In this document: piece after piece, positions 17,304 through 60,008 of the stretch
How the letters are laid out: each line of letters begins with the position of its first letter
How positions within the stretch are numbered: the stretch's first letter is position 1
NCBI RefSeq assembly: GCF_030384885.1
Contig: NZ_CP128613.1
DNA: 64,000 nt
DNA from: Escherichia coli
GTDB taxonomy: Bacteria; Pseudomonadota; Gammaproteobacteria; Enterobacterales; Enterobacteriaceae
Reading direction: 5' to 3' (one strand)
Made by a program: the position numbers and the translations under genes
Notes under the pieces: model-generated
The model's database searches: none
Told to the model about the DNA's origin: nothing
What the model saw: only the letters and a program-made list of their open reading frames with translations

Positions 17304-17892
17304 AATGCCGTCCGTGAAAAAATAACAATTCAAAAATTATTTTATAAAAAACAGTAGCACTAATGAATATCATAATTCAAATAAACAAACCAGTCAGCTA
17401 TATGTCTAACCAGGAAAATAAAGTGACAATAATCCTAAAACAGGAATTTCACCTCAGTTATCCGCATGCAATACTTTAAAGCTATTATTGCAAGAATATT
17501 ATTCATATACATGAATATACTCTAAATAAGTCAAGTTGCAGGAAGGGAACAAATAATGAATATCCAGAAGCTTACATAAGTAAGTGACCTGGGTGAGCGA
17601 ACATCGATGCAGCACATGCAACTTGAATTATGACAAGTATACAATGATAAATTTATATACCCTATGTTATATATTATCTATGTCCGGTTAAATTGAATGA
17701 GTCATAGCCTTAAAAGACTTCACAAAAGATAATTCCTCTTTAACAATAAGCCAGATTTACCACTTGTAAAACTTGCTATCGCCACATACACTACGCGCGT
17801 TTTCTTTCCCTTTTGCTGGCTGCTGACCGGAAAGACAAAATTACCCTCGCAATACAGGGGGTTGATTAACGTCTATATTTCAGGACAGCGTT

Positions 17893-52453: not shown

Positions 52454-55130
52454 CGAACCCTTACGTCCCGACCCCGATCGTCTGCTGGAACAAACTGCCG
52501 CGCCGCATCGGGGGAAGCTGAAAGTATTTTTCGGTGCCTGTGCAGGCGTCGGGAAGACCTGGGCGATGCTGGCAGAAGCCCAGCGACTGCGGGCGCAAGG
52601 GCTGGATATTGTGGTTGGCGTGGTTGAAACTCACGGACGGAAAGATACCGCCGCAATGCTGGAAGGGCTGGCTGTTCTGCCGCTAAAACGCCAGGCGTAC
52701 CGTGGGCGGCACATCAGCGAGTTTGATCTCGATGCCGCCCTCGCCCGCCGTCCGGCGCTGATCTTAATGGACGAACTGGCGCACAGTAATGCGCCAGGCT
52801 CTCGTCATCCTAAACGCTGGCAGGACATTGAAGAGCTGCTGGAAGCGGGCATTGATGTTTTCACTACCGTCAACGTTCAGCATCTGGAAAGCCTGAACGA
52901 TGTGGTCAGCGGCGTCACCGGAATTCAGGTGCGGGAAACCGTGCCCGATCCCTTTTTTGATGCTGCCGACGACGTAGTGCTGGTGGACTTGCCCCCAGAC
53001 GATCTGCGTCAACGGCTGAAAGAAGGCAAAGTCTATATTGCCGGGCAGGCGGAGCGCGCCATTGAACATTTTTTCCGCAAAGGCAATCTGATCGCCCTGC
53101 GCGAACTGGCACTGCGCCGTACTGCCGATCGCGTAGATGAGCAAATGCGCGCCTGGCGGGGGCATCCTGGCGAAGAGAAAGTCTGGCACACGCGCGACGC
53201 GATTCTTTTATGTATTGGGCATAACACCGGCAGCGAAAAACTGGTCCGCGCGGCGGCACGGTTGGCATCGCGCCTTGGGAGCGTCTGGCACGCGGTGTAT
53301 GTTGAAACCCCTGCCCTGCATCGCTTACCGGAGAAAAAACGTCGGGCAATTCTCAGCGCCTTACGTCTGGCGCAGGAGCTGGGCGCGGAGACAGCAACAC
53401 TTTCTGATCCGGCGGAAGAAAAAGCCGTAGTGCATTATGCCCGTGAACATAATCTCGGCAAGATTATTCTCGGTCGCCCGGCCTCGCGCCGCTGGTGGCG
53501 TCGGGAAACGTTTGCTGACCGACTGGCGCGCATCGCCCCCGATCTCGATCAGGTGCTGGTCGCGCTTGATGAACCACCCGCCCGCCCGCTTAATAACGCG
53601 CCGGATAGCCGCTCTTTTAAAGACAAGTGGCGGGTACAGATTCAGGGGTGCGTGGTTGCCGCCGCGTTATGTGCCGTTATCACCTTAATTGCCATGCAGT
53701 GGCTGATGGCGTTTGATGCCGCCAACCTGGTGATGCTGTATCTGCTTGGCGTGGTGGTGGTGGCGCTATTTTATGGACGCTGGCCTTCGGTGCTTGCTAC
53801 CGTCATTAATGTGGTGAGTTTCGATCTCTTTTTTATCGCCCCACGCGGCACGCTCGCCGTCTCTGATGTGCAATATCTGCTGACCTTCGCGGTGATGTTA
53901 ACCGTCGGGCTGGTGATCGGGAACCTTACTGCTGGCGTGCGTTATCAGGCGCGGGTAGCCCGTTACCGCGAACAACGCACACGGCACTTATATGAAATGT
54001 CGAAAGCTCTGGCTGTGGGCCGCAGTCCGCAGGACATCGCCGCCACCAGCGAACAATTTATTGCTTCTACGTTTCATGCCCGCAGCCAGGTATTGTTACC
54101 CGATGACAACGGTAAATTGCAGCCGTTAACACATCCGCAAGGAATGACGCCGTGGGACGATGCCATCGCGCAGTGGAGTTTTGATAAAGGCCTGCCTGCG
54201 GGCGCGGGCACCGATACGTTACCCGGTGTGCCATACCAGATTTTGCCGTTAAAAAGCGGTGAGAAAACCTACGGGCTGGTGGTGGTGGAACCGGGGAATC
54301 TGCGCCAGTTGATGATCCCGGAACAGCAACGCCTGCTGGAGACGTTCACGCTGTTAGTTGCCAATGCCCTGGAACGCCTGGCGCTGACCGCCAGCGAAGA
54401 ACAGGCGCGGATGGCAAGCGAACGAGAACAGATCCGCAACGCCCTGCTGGCGGCGCTTTCGCATGATTTACGCACGCCGCTTACGGTGCTGTTCGGTCAG
54501 GCAGAAATCTTAACGCTCGATCTGGCAAGCGAAGGATCGCCTCACGCCCGCCAGGCCAGCGAGATTCGTCAGCATGTGCTGAACACGACCCGACTGGTGA
54601 ATAATCTACTGGATATGGCGCGAATTCAGTCCGGCGGCTTTAATTTGAAGAAAGAGTGGTTAACGCTGGAAGAAGTGGTCGGTAGCGCGCTACAAATGCT
54701 GGAACCGGGATTATCATCGCCCATCAACCTGTCTTTGCCAGAACCGCTGACCTTAATCCACGTTGATGGGCCACTCTTTGAACGGGTGCTGATTAATCTG
54801 CTGGAGAACGCGGTGAAATATGCGGGTGCGCAGGCCGAAATTGGTATCGATGCCCACGTTGAGGGCGAAAATCTACAACTGGATGTCTGGGATAACGGCC
54901 CCGGTCTTCCGCCAGGTCAGGAGCAGACGATATTCGATAAGTTTGCTCGTGGAAATAAAGAGTCGGCGGTGCCGGGCGTTGGGCTTGGGCTGGCAATTTG
55001 TCGGGCGATTGTGGATGTACACGACGGCACCATTACCGCCTTCAACCGACCGCAAGGTGGTGCCTGTTTTCGTGTTACACTTCCCCAGCAAACTGCCCCT
55101 GAACTTGAAGAATTTCATGAGGATATGTGA
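52446..55130 (+). CDS. kdpD: Sensor histidine kinase KdpD
   Basis: 894-aa protein from [42 protein letters not shown]; H-box [13 protein letters not shown]; overlaps the kdpC end. Confidence 0.97.
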
Positions 55131-55804
55131 CAAACGTTCTGATTGTTGAAGATGAACAGGCTATTCGTCGCTTTCTGCGCACGGCGCTGGAGGGCGATGG
55201 GATGCGCGTCTTTGAGGCCGAAACGCTGCAACGCGGCTTGCTGGAAGCGGCAACCCGTAAGCCCGATTTGATTATTCTCGATCTCGGCCTGCCAGACGGT
55301 GATGGGATTGAGTTTATCCGCGACCTGCGCCAGTGGAGCGCGGTGCCAGTAATTGTGCTTTCCGCCCGCAGCGAAGAGAGCGACAAAATCGCCGCGCTGG
55401 ATGCTGGAGCGGATGATTATCTGAGTAAGCCATTTGGTATTGGCGAATTACAGGCCCGTCTGCGCGTTGCTTTACGTCGCCACTCCGCCACCGCCGCTCC
55501 CGATCCGCTGGTGAAATTTTCTGATGTTACCGTCGATTTAGCCGCCCGCGTAATCCACCGCGGCGAGGAAGAGGTGCATCTCACCCCGATTGAATTCCGC
55601 CTGCTGGCGGTGCTGCTCAACAATGCCGGAAAAGTGCTCACCCAGCGCCAGCTTCTCAACCAGGTGTGGGGACCAAACGCGGTCGAACACAGCCACTATT
55701 TGCGTATATATATGGGGCATCTGCGACAAAAACTGGAGCAAGATCCCGCCCGCCCTCGCCATTTTATTACTGAAACCGGTATTGGGTATCGGTTTATGCC
55801 ATGA
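55127..55804 (+). CDS. kdpE: Response regulator KdpE (OmpR family)
   Basis: GTG start overlapping the kdpD stop; [37 protein letters not shown]... Confidence 0.97.
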   Translation: MTNVLIVEDEQAIRRFLRTALEGDGMRVFEAETLQRGLLEAATRKPDLIILDLGLPDGDGIEFIRDLRQWSAVPVIVLSARSEESDKIAALDAGADDYLSKPFGIGELQARLRVALRRHSATAAPDPLVKFSDVTVDLAARVIHRGEEEVHLTPIEFRLLAVLLNNAGKVLTQRQLLNQVWGPNAVEHSHYLRIYMGHLRQKLEQDPARPRHFITETGIGYRFMP

Positions 55805-56078
55805 ATTATTATTCAATAAATACGCTTAACTAATTATTAATTTATTATTAAACCTGCCCCGAAAATTATTATTTGGCAGGTTTAATTTCTTAATGAAAAT
55901 ATAACCTACGAAATTGCAACATTTAAACAACAAAACAGCATCTAATATGGCGCTATTCATAATTAACGATTTATTATTTGGGGTGTGATCGTTTTTTGTT
56001 GATCTTCTTCACAGTTTATAGCCTTTTCATGGATAGAATAACTCTACCTTCAACTGACACAGCAAAAGGTAAAGGTAA

Positions 56079-56183
56079 ATGGAAAATAATAACCGCTTAA
56101 TGCCTCATATAAGGCGGACAACCCATATCATGAAGTTTGCCCATCGTAATAGTTTTGACTTTCATTTCTTTAATGCCCGTTAG
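56079..56183 (+). CDS. speFL: speF leader arrest peptide SpeFL (34 aa; ornithine-sensing nascent peptide)
   Basis: Hand translation gives MENNNRLMPHIRRTTHIMKFAHRNSFDFHFFNAR; the C-terminal HIRRTTHIMKFAHRNSFDFHFFNAR matches my recollection of SpeFL; about 300 nt upstream of speF. Confidence 0.8.
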   Translation: MENNNRLMPHIRRTTHIMKFAHRNSFDFHFFNAR

Positions 56184-56493
56184 TCTTCTGACTAAAGGGC
56201 ACCCCAGCGTACAGGTCTCCCTGACTTTAAGCATTACAGGTTAATACCTGTATCCCTCGGTGCTCATATACTGCTAACCCTTTTAAACTCTAAATAATTC
56301 AAGTCGCAGCACTAGCAACTTGAAGTATGACGAGTATAGCCAGTTACCGGGCTGGTCTGGGTTATTGCATCTGCAAAAAGCAAACTACTGATTTATTTAT
56401 CAGCGGTGGAGTTTTGCTTTTTTTCCGGCGTGATCGATTTCTCCTTTGAGAAATTGAGGACCTGCTATTACCTGAAATAAAGAGATGAACAAA
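56184..56493 (+). promoter_or_regulatory. speF leader/attenuator region between speFL and speF
   Basis: Positional; about 310-nt untranslated interval between the leader ORF and speF. Confidence 0.5.
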
Positions 56494-58692
56494 ATGTCAG
56501 AATTAAAAATTGCCGTTAGTCGTTCTTGCCCGGATTGTTTTTCCACTCATCGTGCATGCGTGAATATTGACGAAAGTAATTATATTGACGTTGCCGCCAT
56601 TATTTTATCAGTCAATGATGTTGAACGTGGAAAACTCGATGAAATAGACGCTACTGGCTATGGCATTCCTGTTTTTATTGCAACGGAAAATGAAGAACGT
56701 GTACCAGCAGAATATCTGCCACGTATTACTGGTGTCTTCGAGCATTGCGAATCACGGAAAGAATTTTATGGACGTCAGTTAGAAACCGCTGCCAGCCATT
56801 ATGAAACGCAGCTGCGCCCGCCCTTCTTCCGCGCACTGGTCGATTATGTCAATCAGGGCAATAGCGCTTTTGACTGCCCGGGTCATCAGGGGGGTGAGTT
56901 TTTCCGTCGCCATCCGGCAGGCAATCAGTTCGTGGAATATTTTGGCGAAATGCTCTTCCGCTCCGACTTGTGTAATGCCGACGTAGCAATGGGCGATCTA
57001 CTGATTCATGAAGGTGCGCCATGCATTGCACAGCAACATGCGGCTAAAGTGTTTAATGCCGATAAAACGTACTTTATTTTAAACGGCACCTCCTCTTCCA
57101 ACAAAGTGGTTTTAAACGCCCTGCTAACACCGGGTGATCTGGTGCTGTTTGACCGCAATAACCATAAGTCTAACCACCACGGGGCCTTGCTACAGGCTGG
57201 TGCAACACCGGTTTATCTGGAAACAGCACGTAACCCGTATGGTTTTATCGGTGGGATTGATGCGCACTGCTTCGAAGAAAGTTATCTGCGTGAACTGATT
57301 AGAGAAGTTGCACCGCAACGGGCAAAAGAGGCGCGTCCGTTCCGCCTCGCTGTGATTCAGTTAGGCACCTACGACGGTACTATTTATAACGCCCGCCAGG
57401 TGGTGGATAAAATCGGTCATCTGTGTGACTACATCCTGTTTGACTCAGCATGGGTCGGCTATGAACAGTTTATTCCGATGATGGCGGACTGTTCGCCGCT
57501 GCTACTGGAGCTTAATGAGAACGATCCGGGTATTCTGGTTACGCAATCTGTACATAAGCAGCAGGCTGGTTTTTCTCAGACTTCACAAATTCATAAAAAA
57601 GACAGCCATATCAAAGGGCAACAGCGTTATGTACCGCACAAACGCATGAACAACGCCTTTATGATGCACGCCTCCACCAGCCCGTTCTATCCGCTGTTTG
57701 CCGCACTGGATATCAACGCCAAAATGCATGAAGGTGTCAGCGGTCGTAATATGTGGATGGATTGTGTGGTTAACGGTATTAATGCCCGCAAATTGATCCT
57801 CGATAACTGTCAGCACATTCGTCCGTTCGTTCCTGAACTGGTGGATGGTAAACCCTGGCAATCGTATGAAACAGCGCAAATTGCGGTTGATCTGCGCTTC
57901 TTTAAATTTGTACCCGGTGAGCACTGGCATTCTTTTGAAGGTTACGCAGAGAACCAATACTTTGTCGATCCGTGCAAACTGTTGCTGACAACTCCTGGCA
58001 TTGATGCACGTAACGGCGAATATGAAGCATTCGGTGTACCCGCGACGATTCTTGCTAACTTCCTGCGCGAAAATGGCGTAGTGCCGGAAAAATGCGATCT
58101 TAACTCCATCCTCTTCCTGCTGACTCCGGCAGAAGATATGGCCAAACTGCAGCAACTTGTTGCCCTGCTGGTACGCTTCGAAAAACTACTGGAAGCTGAT
58201 GCGCCTCTGGCGGAAGTATTGCCTTCCATCTACAAACAGCATGAAGAGCGCTACGCCGGTTATACCCTGCGTCAGTTGTGCCAGGAAATGCATGATTTGT
58301 ATGCCCGTCACAACGTGAAACAACTGCAAAAAGAGATGTTCCGTAAGGAGCACTTCCCACGCGTCAGCATGAATCCACAAGAAGCCAACTACGCCTATTT
58401 ACGCGGTGAAGTGGAGCTGGTTCGTCTGCCGGATGCAGAAGGCCGTATCGCAGCCGAAGGTGCGCTTCCTTATCCTCCGGGTGTGCTGTGTGTTGTTCCG
58501 GGTGAAATCTGGGGTGGTGCTGTTCTGCGTTACTTCAGCGCTCTGGAAGAAGGGATCAACCTGCTACCAGGTTTTGCACCGGAGCTGCAGGGTGTCTATA
58601 TCGAAGAACATGATGGTCGTAAGCAAGTTTGGTGCTATGTCATCAAGCCTCGTGATGCGCAAAGCACCCTGTTGAAAGGGGAAAAATTATGA
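56494..58692 (+). CDS. speF: Inducible ornithine decarboxylase
   Basis: 732-aa protein MSELKIAVSRSCPDCF... with PLP-dependent decarboxylase regions; followed by potE with a 4-nt overlap. Confidence 0.97.
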   Translation: MSELKIAVSRSCPDCFSTHRACVNIDESNYIDVAAIILSVNDVERGKLDEIDATGYGIPVFIATENEERVPAEYLPRITGVFEHCESRKEFYGRQLETAASHYETQLRPPFFRALVDYVNQGNSAFDCPGHQGGEFFRRHPAGNQFVEYFGEMLFRSDLCNADVAMGDLLIHEGAPCIAQQHAAKVFNADKTYFILNGTSSSNKVVLNALLTPGDLVLFDRNNHKSNHHGALLQAGATPVYLETARNPYGFIGGIDAHCFEESYLRELIREVAPQRAKEARPFRLAVIQLGTYDGTIYNARQVVDKIGHLCDYILFDSAWVGYEQFIPMMADCSPLLLELNENDPGILVTQSVHKQQAGFSQTSQIHKKDSHIKGQQRYVPHKRMNNAFMMHASTSPFYPLFAALDINAKMHEGVSGRNMWMDCVVNGINARKLILDNCQHIRPFVPELVDGKPWQSYETAQIAVDLRFFKFVPGEHWHSFEGYAENQYFVDPCKLLLTTPGIDARNGEYEAFGVPATILANFLRENGVVPEKCDLNSILFLLTPAEDMAKLQQLVALLVRFEKLLEADAPLAEVLPSIYKQHEERYAGYTLRQLCQEMHDLYARHNVKQLQKEMFRKEHFPRVSMNPQEANYAYLRGEVELVRLPDAEGRIAAEGALPYPPGVLCVVPGEIWGGAVLRYFSALEEGINLLPGFAPELQGVYIEEHDGRKQVWCYVIKPRDAQSTLLKGEKL

Positions 58693-60008
58693 GTCAGGCT
58701 AAATCGAACAAAATGGGCGTCGTTCAGTTAACCATACTGACGATGGTCAACATGATGGGCTCCGGCATCATCATGCTGCCGACAAAGCTTGCCGAAGTTG
58801 GGACGATCTCAATAATCTCCTGGTTGGTGACAGCCGTAGGCTCAATGGCGCTGGCATGGGCATTCGCAAAATGCGGTATGTTCAGCCGTAAATCAGGCGG
58901 TATGGGCGGTTATGCCGAGTATGCTTTCGGTAAATCCGGTAACTTTATGGCGAACTATACCTACGGCGTCTCGCTGCTGATTGCTAACGTGGCGATTGCT
59001 ATTTCGGCAGTTGGTTACGGCACCGAACTGCTCGGCGCGAGTTTGTCACCAGTGCAGATTGGTCTGGCAACCATCGGAGTGCTGTGGATTTGTACCGTGG
59101 CTAACTTTGGTGGTGCGCGCATTACCGGGCAAATCAGTAGCATTACCGTGTGGGGGGTCATTATTCCGGTGGTAGGCCTGTGCGTTATCGGCTGGTTCTG
59201 GTTTAGCCCGACACTTTACGTTGATTCCTGGAATCCGCATCATGCACCGTTCTTCAGTGCGGTAGGTTCTTCCATCGCCATGACGCTGTGGGCTTTTCTT
59301 GGTCTGGAGTCTGCGTGTGCGAATACTGATGTAGTGGAAAACCCGGAACGTAATGTGCCAATCGCGGTACTCGGCGGTACGTTAGGTGCGGCGGTGATTT
59401 ATATCGTCTCCACCAACGTGATTGCCGGGATTGTGCCCAATATGGAGCTGGCAAATTCAACGGCACCATTTGGTCTGGCCTTCGCGCAAATGTTCACACC
59501 GGAAGTGGGTAAAGTCATTATGGCGCTGATGGTGATGTCCTGCTGCGGTTCACTGCTTGGCTGGCAGTTCACCATTGCCCAGGTGTTTAAATCTTCATCT
59601 GATGAAGGCTACTTCCCTAAAATTTTCTCCCGTGTAACCAAAGTGGATGCACCGGTTCAGGGGATGTTGACCATTGTGATTATTCAGAGTGGATTGGCAC
59701 TGATGACCATTAGCCCGTCACTGAACAGCCAGTTCAACGTGCTGGTTAACCTGGCCGTGGTGACCAATATCATTCCGTATATCCTGTCGATGGCGGCATT
59801 AGTCATTATTCAGAAGGTCGCCAATGTGCCACCATCAAAAGCGAAAGTAGCAAACTTTGTTGCCTTTGTTGGTGCGATGTACAGTTTCTATGCGCTGTAC
59901 TCATCCGGGGAAGAAGCCATGCTGTACGGTTCCATCGTGACTTTCCTTGGTTGGACACTGTATGGTCTGGTATCACCACGCTTTGAACTGAAAAACAAAC
60001 ACGGTTAA
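58689..60008 (+). CDS. potE: Putrescine-ornithine antiporter
   Basis: 439-aa APC-family transporter MSQAKSNKMGVVQLTILTMVNMMGSGIIMLPTKLAEVG... Confidence 0.97.
   Translation: MSQAKSNKMGVVQLTILTMVNMMGSGIIMLPTKLAEVGTISIISWLVTAVGSMALAWAFAKCGMFSRKSGGMGGYAEYAFGKSGNFMANYTYGVSLLIANVAIAISAVGYGTELLGASLSPVQIGLATIGVLWICTVANFGGARITGQISSITVWGVIIPVVGLCVIGWFWFSPTLYVDSWNPHHAPFFSAVGSSIAMTLWAFLGLESACANTDVVENPERNVPIAVLGGTLGAAVIYIVSTNVIAGIVPNMELANSTAPFGLAFAQMFTPEVGKVIMALMVMSCCGSLLGWQFTIAQVFKSSSDEGYFPKIFSRVTKVDAPVQGMLTIVIIQSGLALMTISPSLNSQFNVLVNLAVVTNIIPYILSMAALVIIQKVANVPPSKAKVANFVAFVGAMYSFYALYSSGEEAMLYGSIVTFLGWTLYGLVSPRFELKNKHG

Follow-up and report, generated by a model that had tools for sequence, protein, structure and literature searches.

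The N5/L7 form of the SpeFL leader peptide is the majority Escherichia coli allele and belongs to a diverged speFL-speF haplotype

The leader ORF that precedes speF-potE in the DNA analysed here (a stretch of 64,000 nt from Escherichia coli, referred to as the window) carries asparagine at position 5 and leucine at position 7 of its peptide (N5/L7). This pair predominates in E. coli, the serine and threonine of K-12 (S5/T7) being the minority form. The substitutions S5N and T7L are thus real but ordinary, and the window peptide is a very common SpeFL allele that was already known and catalogued. The two amino acid changes are part of a diverged regulatory haplotype of ~1.4 kb that segregates in E. 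coli. We consider it very probable that speFL acts in the window as the leader of speF-potE in the way described for K-12, N5/L7 being a natural majority allele and not a mutant; ribosome arrest and attenuation would then operate with N5/L7, and would do so equivalently to K-12.

Direct translation of the intact 34-codon ORF at 56079-56183 (+ strand) gives MENNNRLMPHIRRTTHIMKFAHRNSFDFHFFNAR, and speFL of K-12 MG1655 (b4803, NC_000913.3 720718-720822) translates to MENNSRTMPHIRRTTHIMKFAHRNSFDFHFFNAR. An earlier note on this DNA had given S and T as the K-12 residues at positions 5 and 7, and alignment with K-12 speFL confirmed this: the two peptides differ at exactly S5N (AGC to AAC) and T7L (ACT to TTA), 32 of 34 residues being the same, and residues 8-34 are identical, as the note had stated for the C-terminal portion. 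Its reading of the intact ORF as SpeFL is likewise borne out by Pfam, by the PDB, and by the genomic context. The window peptide scores 27.9 bits against PF10940 (SpeFL), which is above the gathering cut-off of 25, whereas the experimentally characterised K-12 peptide reaches 23.8 bits and falls under it. It also matches the SpeFL chain of PDB entries 6TBV and 6TC3, which both hold the K-12 sequence (E = 1.7e-18, 32/34 residues identical), and the ORF lies 310 nt upstream of intact speF-potE and, as in K-12, on the same strand and downstream of kdpE. NCBIfam contains no SpeFL model and no model matching either peptide. In RefSeq, the window peptide is WP_001312672.1, annotated as "leader peptide SpeFL" in E. 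coli EC42405 (100% identical to the window over 701 nt) and in one O157:H7 and one ST131 genome. By every sequence criterion that could be tested, the ORF encodes SpeFL, a full member of the SpeFL/DUF2618 (PF10940) family: besides the Pfam score, we found a speF-adjacent ORF of ~34 codons, the HIRRXXH motif together with Pro9, the rare arginine codons, the phenylalanine core followed by the stop, and the pause hairpin.

Several other readings of the locus were set aside. A chance ORF is ruled out by the PF10940 score, the 6TBV/6TC3 match and the kdpE/speF-potE context, and a degenerate leader is contradicted by the same score and structural match and by the dN/dS ratio given below. An ORF of 45 aa on the minus strand (56097-56234) overlaps the conserved plus-strand speFL and has no conservation signal of its own; it was regarded as a chance ORF. 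An ORF of 43-44 codons at 55969-56100 (+), which overlaps the start of speFL, is annotated as "TonB-dependent receptor" or "hypothetical protein" in window-type RefSeq genomes and is almost certainly a spurious call in an AT-rich promoter region.

The functional organization of SpeFL has been described by cryo-EM, which distinguishes an N-terminal sensor domain (residues 1-13), folded as a hairpin, and a C-terminal effector domain (residues 14-34) responsible for arrest (Herrero del Valle et al., bioRxiv 10.1101/604074). The label "C-terminal arrest/ornithine-binding portion", which the earlier note gave to residues 10-34, is therefore imprecise: residues 14-34 are the arrest effector and not the ornithine-binding part, and the ornithine sensor is residues 1-13. 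In the model proposed for K-12 and Salmonella, a single L-ornithine is captured in the exit tunnel between the nascent N-terminal hairpin and 23S rRNA, in a pocket formed by Pro9, Arg12, Arg13, and 23S rRNA, and the recognition motif HIRRXXH spans residues 10-16; compaction of the Phe-rich C-terminal domain follows, by which RF1 is blocked at the TAG stop (bioRxiv 10.1101/604074). In the presence of ornithine, stalled and queued ribosomes cover the Rho-utilisation (rut) region, and transcription continues into speF-potE; when ornithine is lacking, translation terminates, rut is exposed, Rho loads, and transcription stops (bioRxiv 10.1101/604074; PMC6386406). The rare codons of Arg12-Arg13, AGG-CGG, help to keep rut exposed (bioRxiv 10.1101/604074; PMC6386406), and the published model also includes an RNA polymerase pause hairpin, the paused polymerase being freed by the translating ribosome (bioRxiv 10.1101/604074). 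Arrest has been published for the K-12 peptide only, in which it is ornithine dependent, puromycin resistant, and located at codons 33/34 (bioRxiv 10.1101/604074). It is lost or severely weakened when His10, Ile11, Arg12, Arg13, His16, or Phe26/28/30/31 is mutated, and deletion of residues 1-7 abolishes it in vitro (bioRxiv 10.1101/604074). The ribosome contacts named in that work are Glu2, Asn3, His10, His16, Arg23, Asn24, Phe28/30/31, Asn32, and Ala33; Ser5 and Thr7 are not mentioned there, and no contact is named for them. The same authors propose that ornithine sensing is kinetically controlled (bioRxiv 10.1101/604074). A literature search on SpeFL mutational scanning found nothing relevant.

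All the sequence elements of the published model are intact in the window (table 1). The peptide retains Pro9, Phe20/26/28/30/31, Asn32, and a TAG stop directly after residue 34, and the rare arginine codons AGG-CGG are kept at 56112-56117. The pause hairpin folds at −16.4 kcal/mol (z = −2.1), against −15.2 kcal/mol for its K-12 counterpart, and its pairing is maintained across 37 species, in which 75.7% of cells are paired versus at most 44% when the partners are slid. Composition computed for both haplotypes revealed in the K-12 leader an excess of C over G comparable to that of the window, and the skewed stretch may be regarded as a candidate Rho-utilisation region. The RBS-proximal hairpin (−15.9 kcal/mol and z = −2.3 for the fold of 56425-56500) may sequester the speF ribosome-binding site, as judged from work in Salmonella. 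On the promoter side, the block conserved between the two haplotypes may serve the speFL-speF-potE transcript as its core promoter or regulatory region; a consensus scan for promoters and terminators gave counts no higher than expected from shuffled sequence, and an Rfam scan of 55600-56700 returned nothing near any gathering score.

Table 1. Elements of the speFL-speF-potE locus, in window coordinates
Feature	Position	Strand	Description and basis
kdpE	55127..55804	+	Response regulator; ORF list and EC42405 annotation mapped to the window; 3' end is the left edge of the diverged block
Block upstream of speFL	55987..56060	+	TGATC.TTTTTT.TTGATC..CTTCACAG...TGGATAGAATA; conserved between both E. 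coli haplotypes (alignments)
Shine-Dalgarno-like sequence	56064..56075	+	AAAAGGTAAAGG, before the speFL start; K-12 equivalent GAAAGGTAAATT; read from the sequence
speFL	56079..56183	+	ATG...TAG, 34 codons and TAG stop, encoding MENNNRLMPHIRRTTHIMKFAHRNSFDFHFFNAR; sequence, Pfam, PDB match, RefSeq annotation
Codons 5-7	56091..56099	+	AAC CGC TTA (N R L); K-12 AGC CGC ACT (S R T); the sole two amino acid differences
HIRRTTH	56106..56126	+	HIRRXXH motif, residues 10-16; from the sequence, motif role from bioRxiv 10.1101/604074
C-over-G-skewed stretch	56119..56316	+	C/G 1.3-2.3 in 78-nt windows, from mid-speFL into the leader (about +40 to +240)
Pause hairpin	56174..56201	+	UGCCC-G-UUAGUC-UUCU-GACUAA-A-GGGCA; last speFL codons, TAG stop and downstream bases; pause role from bioRxiv 10.1101/604074
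51-54-nt insert	56283..56338	+	Absent from K-12; speFL-speF leader indel; hairpin; internally deleted ERIC/IRU, two termini joined
RBS-proximal hairpin	56434..56457	+	AUUUCUC-CUUU-GAGAAAU; directly precedes the speF ribosome-binding site; same stem sequence in both haplotypes
speF	56494..58692	+	Inducible ornithine decarboxylase, 732 aa, intact; the regulated gene; ORF and annotation
potE	58689..60008	+	Putrescine-ornithine antiporter, 439 aa, intact; second gene of the operon; ORF and annotation

We determined the frequency of the two alleles in 5426 complete E. coli genomes. The first 14 codons of the window ORF (42 nt) occur exactly in 3300 of them, and the corresponding K-12 segment is matched in 1700, with full identity in 1686. 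Over the whole 105-nt ORF, 3335 genomes are at least 95% identical to the window, and 1701 fall at 80-90%, which is the K-12 type. What the earlier note had described as a possibly variant N-terminal sensor segment stands in that residues 5 and 7 do differ from K-12 and are N-terminal; it does not stand as an unusual variant, since the window form is the majority allele. The same counts bear on the possibility that the differences are artefactual, that is, a sequencing or assembly error or a wrong K-12 reference: an identical 42-nt segment in 3300 independent complete genomes leads us to reject a sequencing error, and the K-12 sequence, read directly, differs at exactly codons 5 and 7, so that an artefact can for practical purposes be dismissed.

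An exact-sequence look-up in a large protein collection placed the window and K-12 peptides in a single 90% cluster, each on at least 1000 contigs, together with rarer variants that carry T14K on the K-12 background or L7K/T14V on the window background. The latter, MENNNRKMPHIRRVTHIMKFAHRNSFDFHFFNAR, is a third E. coli SpeFL allele found on 593 contigs, whose changes again affect position 7 and one of the X positions of HIRRXXH. The T14K peptide is itself common (at least 1000 contigs). In the locus extracted from E. coli AR_0011 (NZ_CP024855.1), at 701-805, this change (ACA to AAA, again at an X position of HIRRXXH) occurs in a K-12-type speFL annotated only as "hypothetical protein", and the downstream speF, from 1063, is a frameshifted pseudogene. 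The locus extracted from E. coli CFT073 (NC_004431.1) shows, at 1495-1536, an in-frame deletion of 63 nt inside speFL, which is unannotated there in the record; the deletion leaves MENSFDFHFFNAR and takes out the entire sensor domain and the HIRRXXH motif, so that loss of ornithine-dependent arrest is predicted. Nissle 1917 has a full speFL. Partial speFL matches were seen in at most 23 of 5043 matching genomes, which is an upper bound for deletions of the CFT073 type.

With each GTDB species represented by one genome, a profile scan yielded 80 speFL loci across the Enterobacterales, all of which were translated. Position 5 is occupied by N in 60 species and by S in 20. Variation in the tabulation is greatest at position 7, with L in 33 species, T in 14, M in 9, F in 7, A in 5, I in 4, S in 4, V in 3, and R in 1. 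The commonest pair is N5 with L7 (30 of 80 species), followed by S5 with T7 (12 of 80), the latter found in Citrobacter amalonaticus, C. braakii, Phytobacter, Pluralibacter, Pseudocitrobacter, and Intestinirhabdus. By these counts, N5/L7 is the consensus of the Enterobacteriaceae. PHIRR (residues 9-13) and His16 are invariant in all 80 peptides, the phenylalanine core is largely conserved, and the commonest codon pair for Arg12-Arg13 is AGG followed by a CGN arginine codon. A HMMER search of 1.84 billion representatives agrees with the picture drawn from the 80 loci. Two loci of the scan, a speFL identical to that of K-12 on a 2.2-kb contig of a MAG binned as "Collinsella sp." and an enterobacterial-type speFL locus in an assembly labelled "Chryseobacterium sp. 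18061", are likely to reflect contamination or mislabelled assemblies.

The divergence between the window and K-12 extends well beyond codons 5 and 7. Identity to K-12 starts dropping at about 55460-55660 and is only 54-87% over 55660-57050, versus 95-99% in the flanks (kdpD/kdpE and distal speF/potE). The diverged block, of ~1.4 kb, runs from the 3' end of kdpE across the entire intergenic stretch, speFL and the leader to ~550 nt into speF, and its promoter-side region is largely unalignable between the two sequences. A megablast search with the window intergenic region retrieved 3351 of the 5426 complete genomes, K-12-like genomes dropping out; two haplotypes segregate in E. coli, with roughly 61% of genomes of the window type and 31% of the K-12 type. 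Within speFL, 14 of 105 nt differ, corresponding to 10 synonymous codon changes and the replaced codons 5 and 7. This gives a dS of ~1.1, a rough estimate because it is based on only ~18 synonymous sites and is near saturation, and a dN/dS of ~0.04; the peptide has thus been under strong purifying selection across a deep split. SpeF is affected unevenly, with 706 of 732 residues identical and ~18 of the 26 differences falling in the first 90 residues (window 56494-56770, N-terminal domain).

Distances to other species indicate how deep this split may be. Between the two E. coli alleles, the distance in speFL is as large as that separating each of them from other genera: the window differs by 9 nt from C. 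sedlakii and by 10 nt from Salmonella arizonae, and K-12 by 12 nt from E. albertii and by 12 nt from C. amalonaticus. Over the first 300 nt of speF, the window is 19.7% different from K-12 and 9.7% and 11.3% different from Escherichia E69 and E. albertii, respectively, and K-12 is at least 22% from every sampled species except E. coli. Similarly, in the first 100 nt of the leader, the nearest sequence to K-12 is that of C. braakii (87.5%), and the nearest to the window that of E69 (90%). On the basis of these speF-start and leader distances, the window type, which groups with E. albertii and E69, looks like the native Escherichia form, and the K-12 type, the outlier, resembles an old mosaic or an import; the pattern is suggestive only. 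A broader scenario would hold that two ancient speFL-speF haplotypes differ jointly in promoter-side DNA, residues 5 and 7, the mini-ERIC described below, and the SpeF N-terminus, the K-12 type being the minority, phylogenetically anomalous, and maybe partly introgressed, the last point resting on its leader being closest to C. braakii and C. amalonaticus and on S5/T7 being common to those species. Taken as a whole, this scenario is a tentative one that we are disinclined to favor. A literature search on a phylogroup or recombination dimorphism of speF/potE found nothing relevant.

The speFL-speF leader also differs in length, with 310 nt in the window type versus 257 nt in K-12, owing to a mini-ERIC insert. 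The insert folds as a hairpin (−14.3 kcal/mol, z = −2.8), and a 65-nt query around it has matches in 5425 of the 5426 genomes, at a median of five places per genome, which identifies it as a dispersed repeat. Both of its termini match those of a full-length ERIC copy located at ~17520-17641 in the window. This copy carries the ERIC2-primer core, a primer sequence that 272 papers confirm as ERIC. The insert lacks the ERIC1R/ERIC2 primer core and the central ~70 nt; because the core is absent, it is an internally deleted ERIC and not a full one. It resembles ERIC/IRU elements in its termini, in being an imperfect palindrome, in its intergenic position within a transcribed region, and in being multi-copy. 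At the corresponding leader site, E. albertii and E69 carry an insert of diverged sequence; in some Citrobacter and Kluyvera species, a full ERIC is present elsewhere in the leader. A call of the isrH sRNA on the ERIC-derived insert was rejected as sub-threshold (18 bits versus 45).

What the two substitutions do to ornithine sensing can be weighed against these data. S5N/T7L is most probably neutral or only mildly modulatory, residues 5 and 7 being the two sites at which the sensor hairpin varies in nature. It may be argued instead that the substitutions tune the sensor, the altered hairpin arm folding at a different speed or with a different stability against the tunnel wall and so responding to another ornithine concentration than in K-12. 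The N-terminal hairpin is indeed required, given that removal of residues 1-7 abolishes arrest (bioRxiv 10.1101/604074); the hairpin bearing residues 5 and 7 thus matters, a quantitative effect of T7L, which replaces a polar by a hydrophobic residue, is possible, and if sensing is kinetic, small changes in folding could matter. The association between the two positions (S5 occurs with T7 in 12 of 20 species and N5 with L7 in 30 of 60) hints at non-independence, which shared ancestry explains equally well. On the other hand, nine different residues are found at position 7 and two at position 5 among the 80 species, all with speF downstream, neither residue has a reported contact with the ribosome or the ligand, and every residue shown to be important by mutagenesis is unchanged. 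Natural variation and the reported contacts thus count against a large effect of N5/L7 on ornithine sensing, and we regard such tuning as rather improbable. That N5/L7 is the most frequent natural pair speaks indirectly for its compatibility with the hairpin fold of residues 1-13 in the exit tunnel. Conservation across species, it should be noted, indicates tolerance and not an equal ornithine threshold.

Because the haplotype also differs on the promoter side, in the leader insert, and at the SpeF N-terminus, regulation could differ from that of K-12 even if the peptides were equivalent, and these linked promoter and leader differences are no less likely a source of any regulatory difference than the peptide is. 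According to such an explanation, the cause would lie in the promoter side, in the mini-ERIC hairpin between rut and speF, or in the SpeF N-terminus, with residues 5 and 7 as hitch-hiking markers of the haplotype. It is in agreement with the sharp fall in identity between the flanks and the diverged block, with the nature of the 51-nt insert as a hairpin from a dispersed repeat family, with the clustering of SpeF differences in its first 90 residues, and with the strong purifying selection on the peptide while the surrounding DNA diverged. However, the upstream core block, the pause hairpin, the C-rich stretch, and the RBS-proximal hairpin are kept in both haplotypes, and ERIC occurs at several places in the speF leaders of other genera with no obvious loss of the system. 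We see in this explanation a possibility worth retaining, although one that is unlikely on present evidence, and we continue to prefer the reading in which the window speFL works as the K-12 leader does.

The window shares with K-12 SpeFL (b4803; 6TBV/6TC3) its 34 codons, Pro9, HIRRTTH, AGG-CGG, Phe20/26/28/30/31, Asn32, and TAG, as well as the position between kdpE and speF-potE, the pause hairpin, and the C-rich leader; it differs in S5N, T7L, 10 synonymous codons, the 310-nt leader, the promoter side, and a higher Pfam score. Salmonella orf34 (Ben-Zvi et al. 2019, PLoS Genet, PMC6386406) also belongs to DUF2618/PF10940, lies upstream of speF, and has the rare AGG-CGG codons. Its translation relieves Rho-dependent attenuation, ornithine induces an orf34-speF fusion, and an arginine/RNase G layer has been described in addition (PMC6386406). 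The Salmonella loci that we sampled (subsp. arizonae and diarizonae) have N5/F7; they resemble the window in N5 and differ from it in F7, M19, and a leader of about 378 nt. The tryptophan-sensing TnaC of tnaCAB follows the same logic, a ligand-dependent block of release at the leader stop masking rut and preventing Rho termination (bioRxiv 10.1101/604074), but it is an unrelated peptide with another ligand and another tunnel site, and thus an analogy and not a family relationship.

As originally posed, the question of N5/L7 matters little: the allele is common, the functional elements are intact, and no special explanation is needed. Of modest practical relevance is that the structural and biochemical data on SpeFL all come from the K-12 sequence, which is the minority allele and scores just below the Pfam threshold here; N5/L7, within a distinct regulatory haplotype, is carried by ~61% of complete E. 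coli genomes, among them the sampled O157:H7 and ST131 genomes. K-12 represents the atypical haplotype, and extrapolating ornithine thresholds or speF regulation from it to pathogens calls for a check that both haplotypes behave in the same way. If the two haplotypes set different ornithine or pH thresholds for putrescine production, the K-12 model would not apply to most window-type pathogenic lineages (O157:H7, ST131, Nissle, and the CFT073 lineage).
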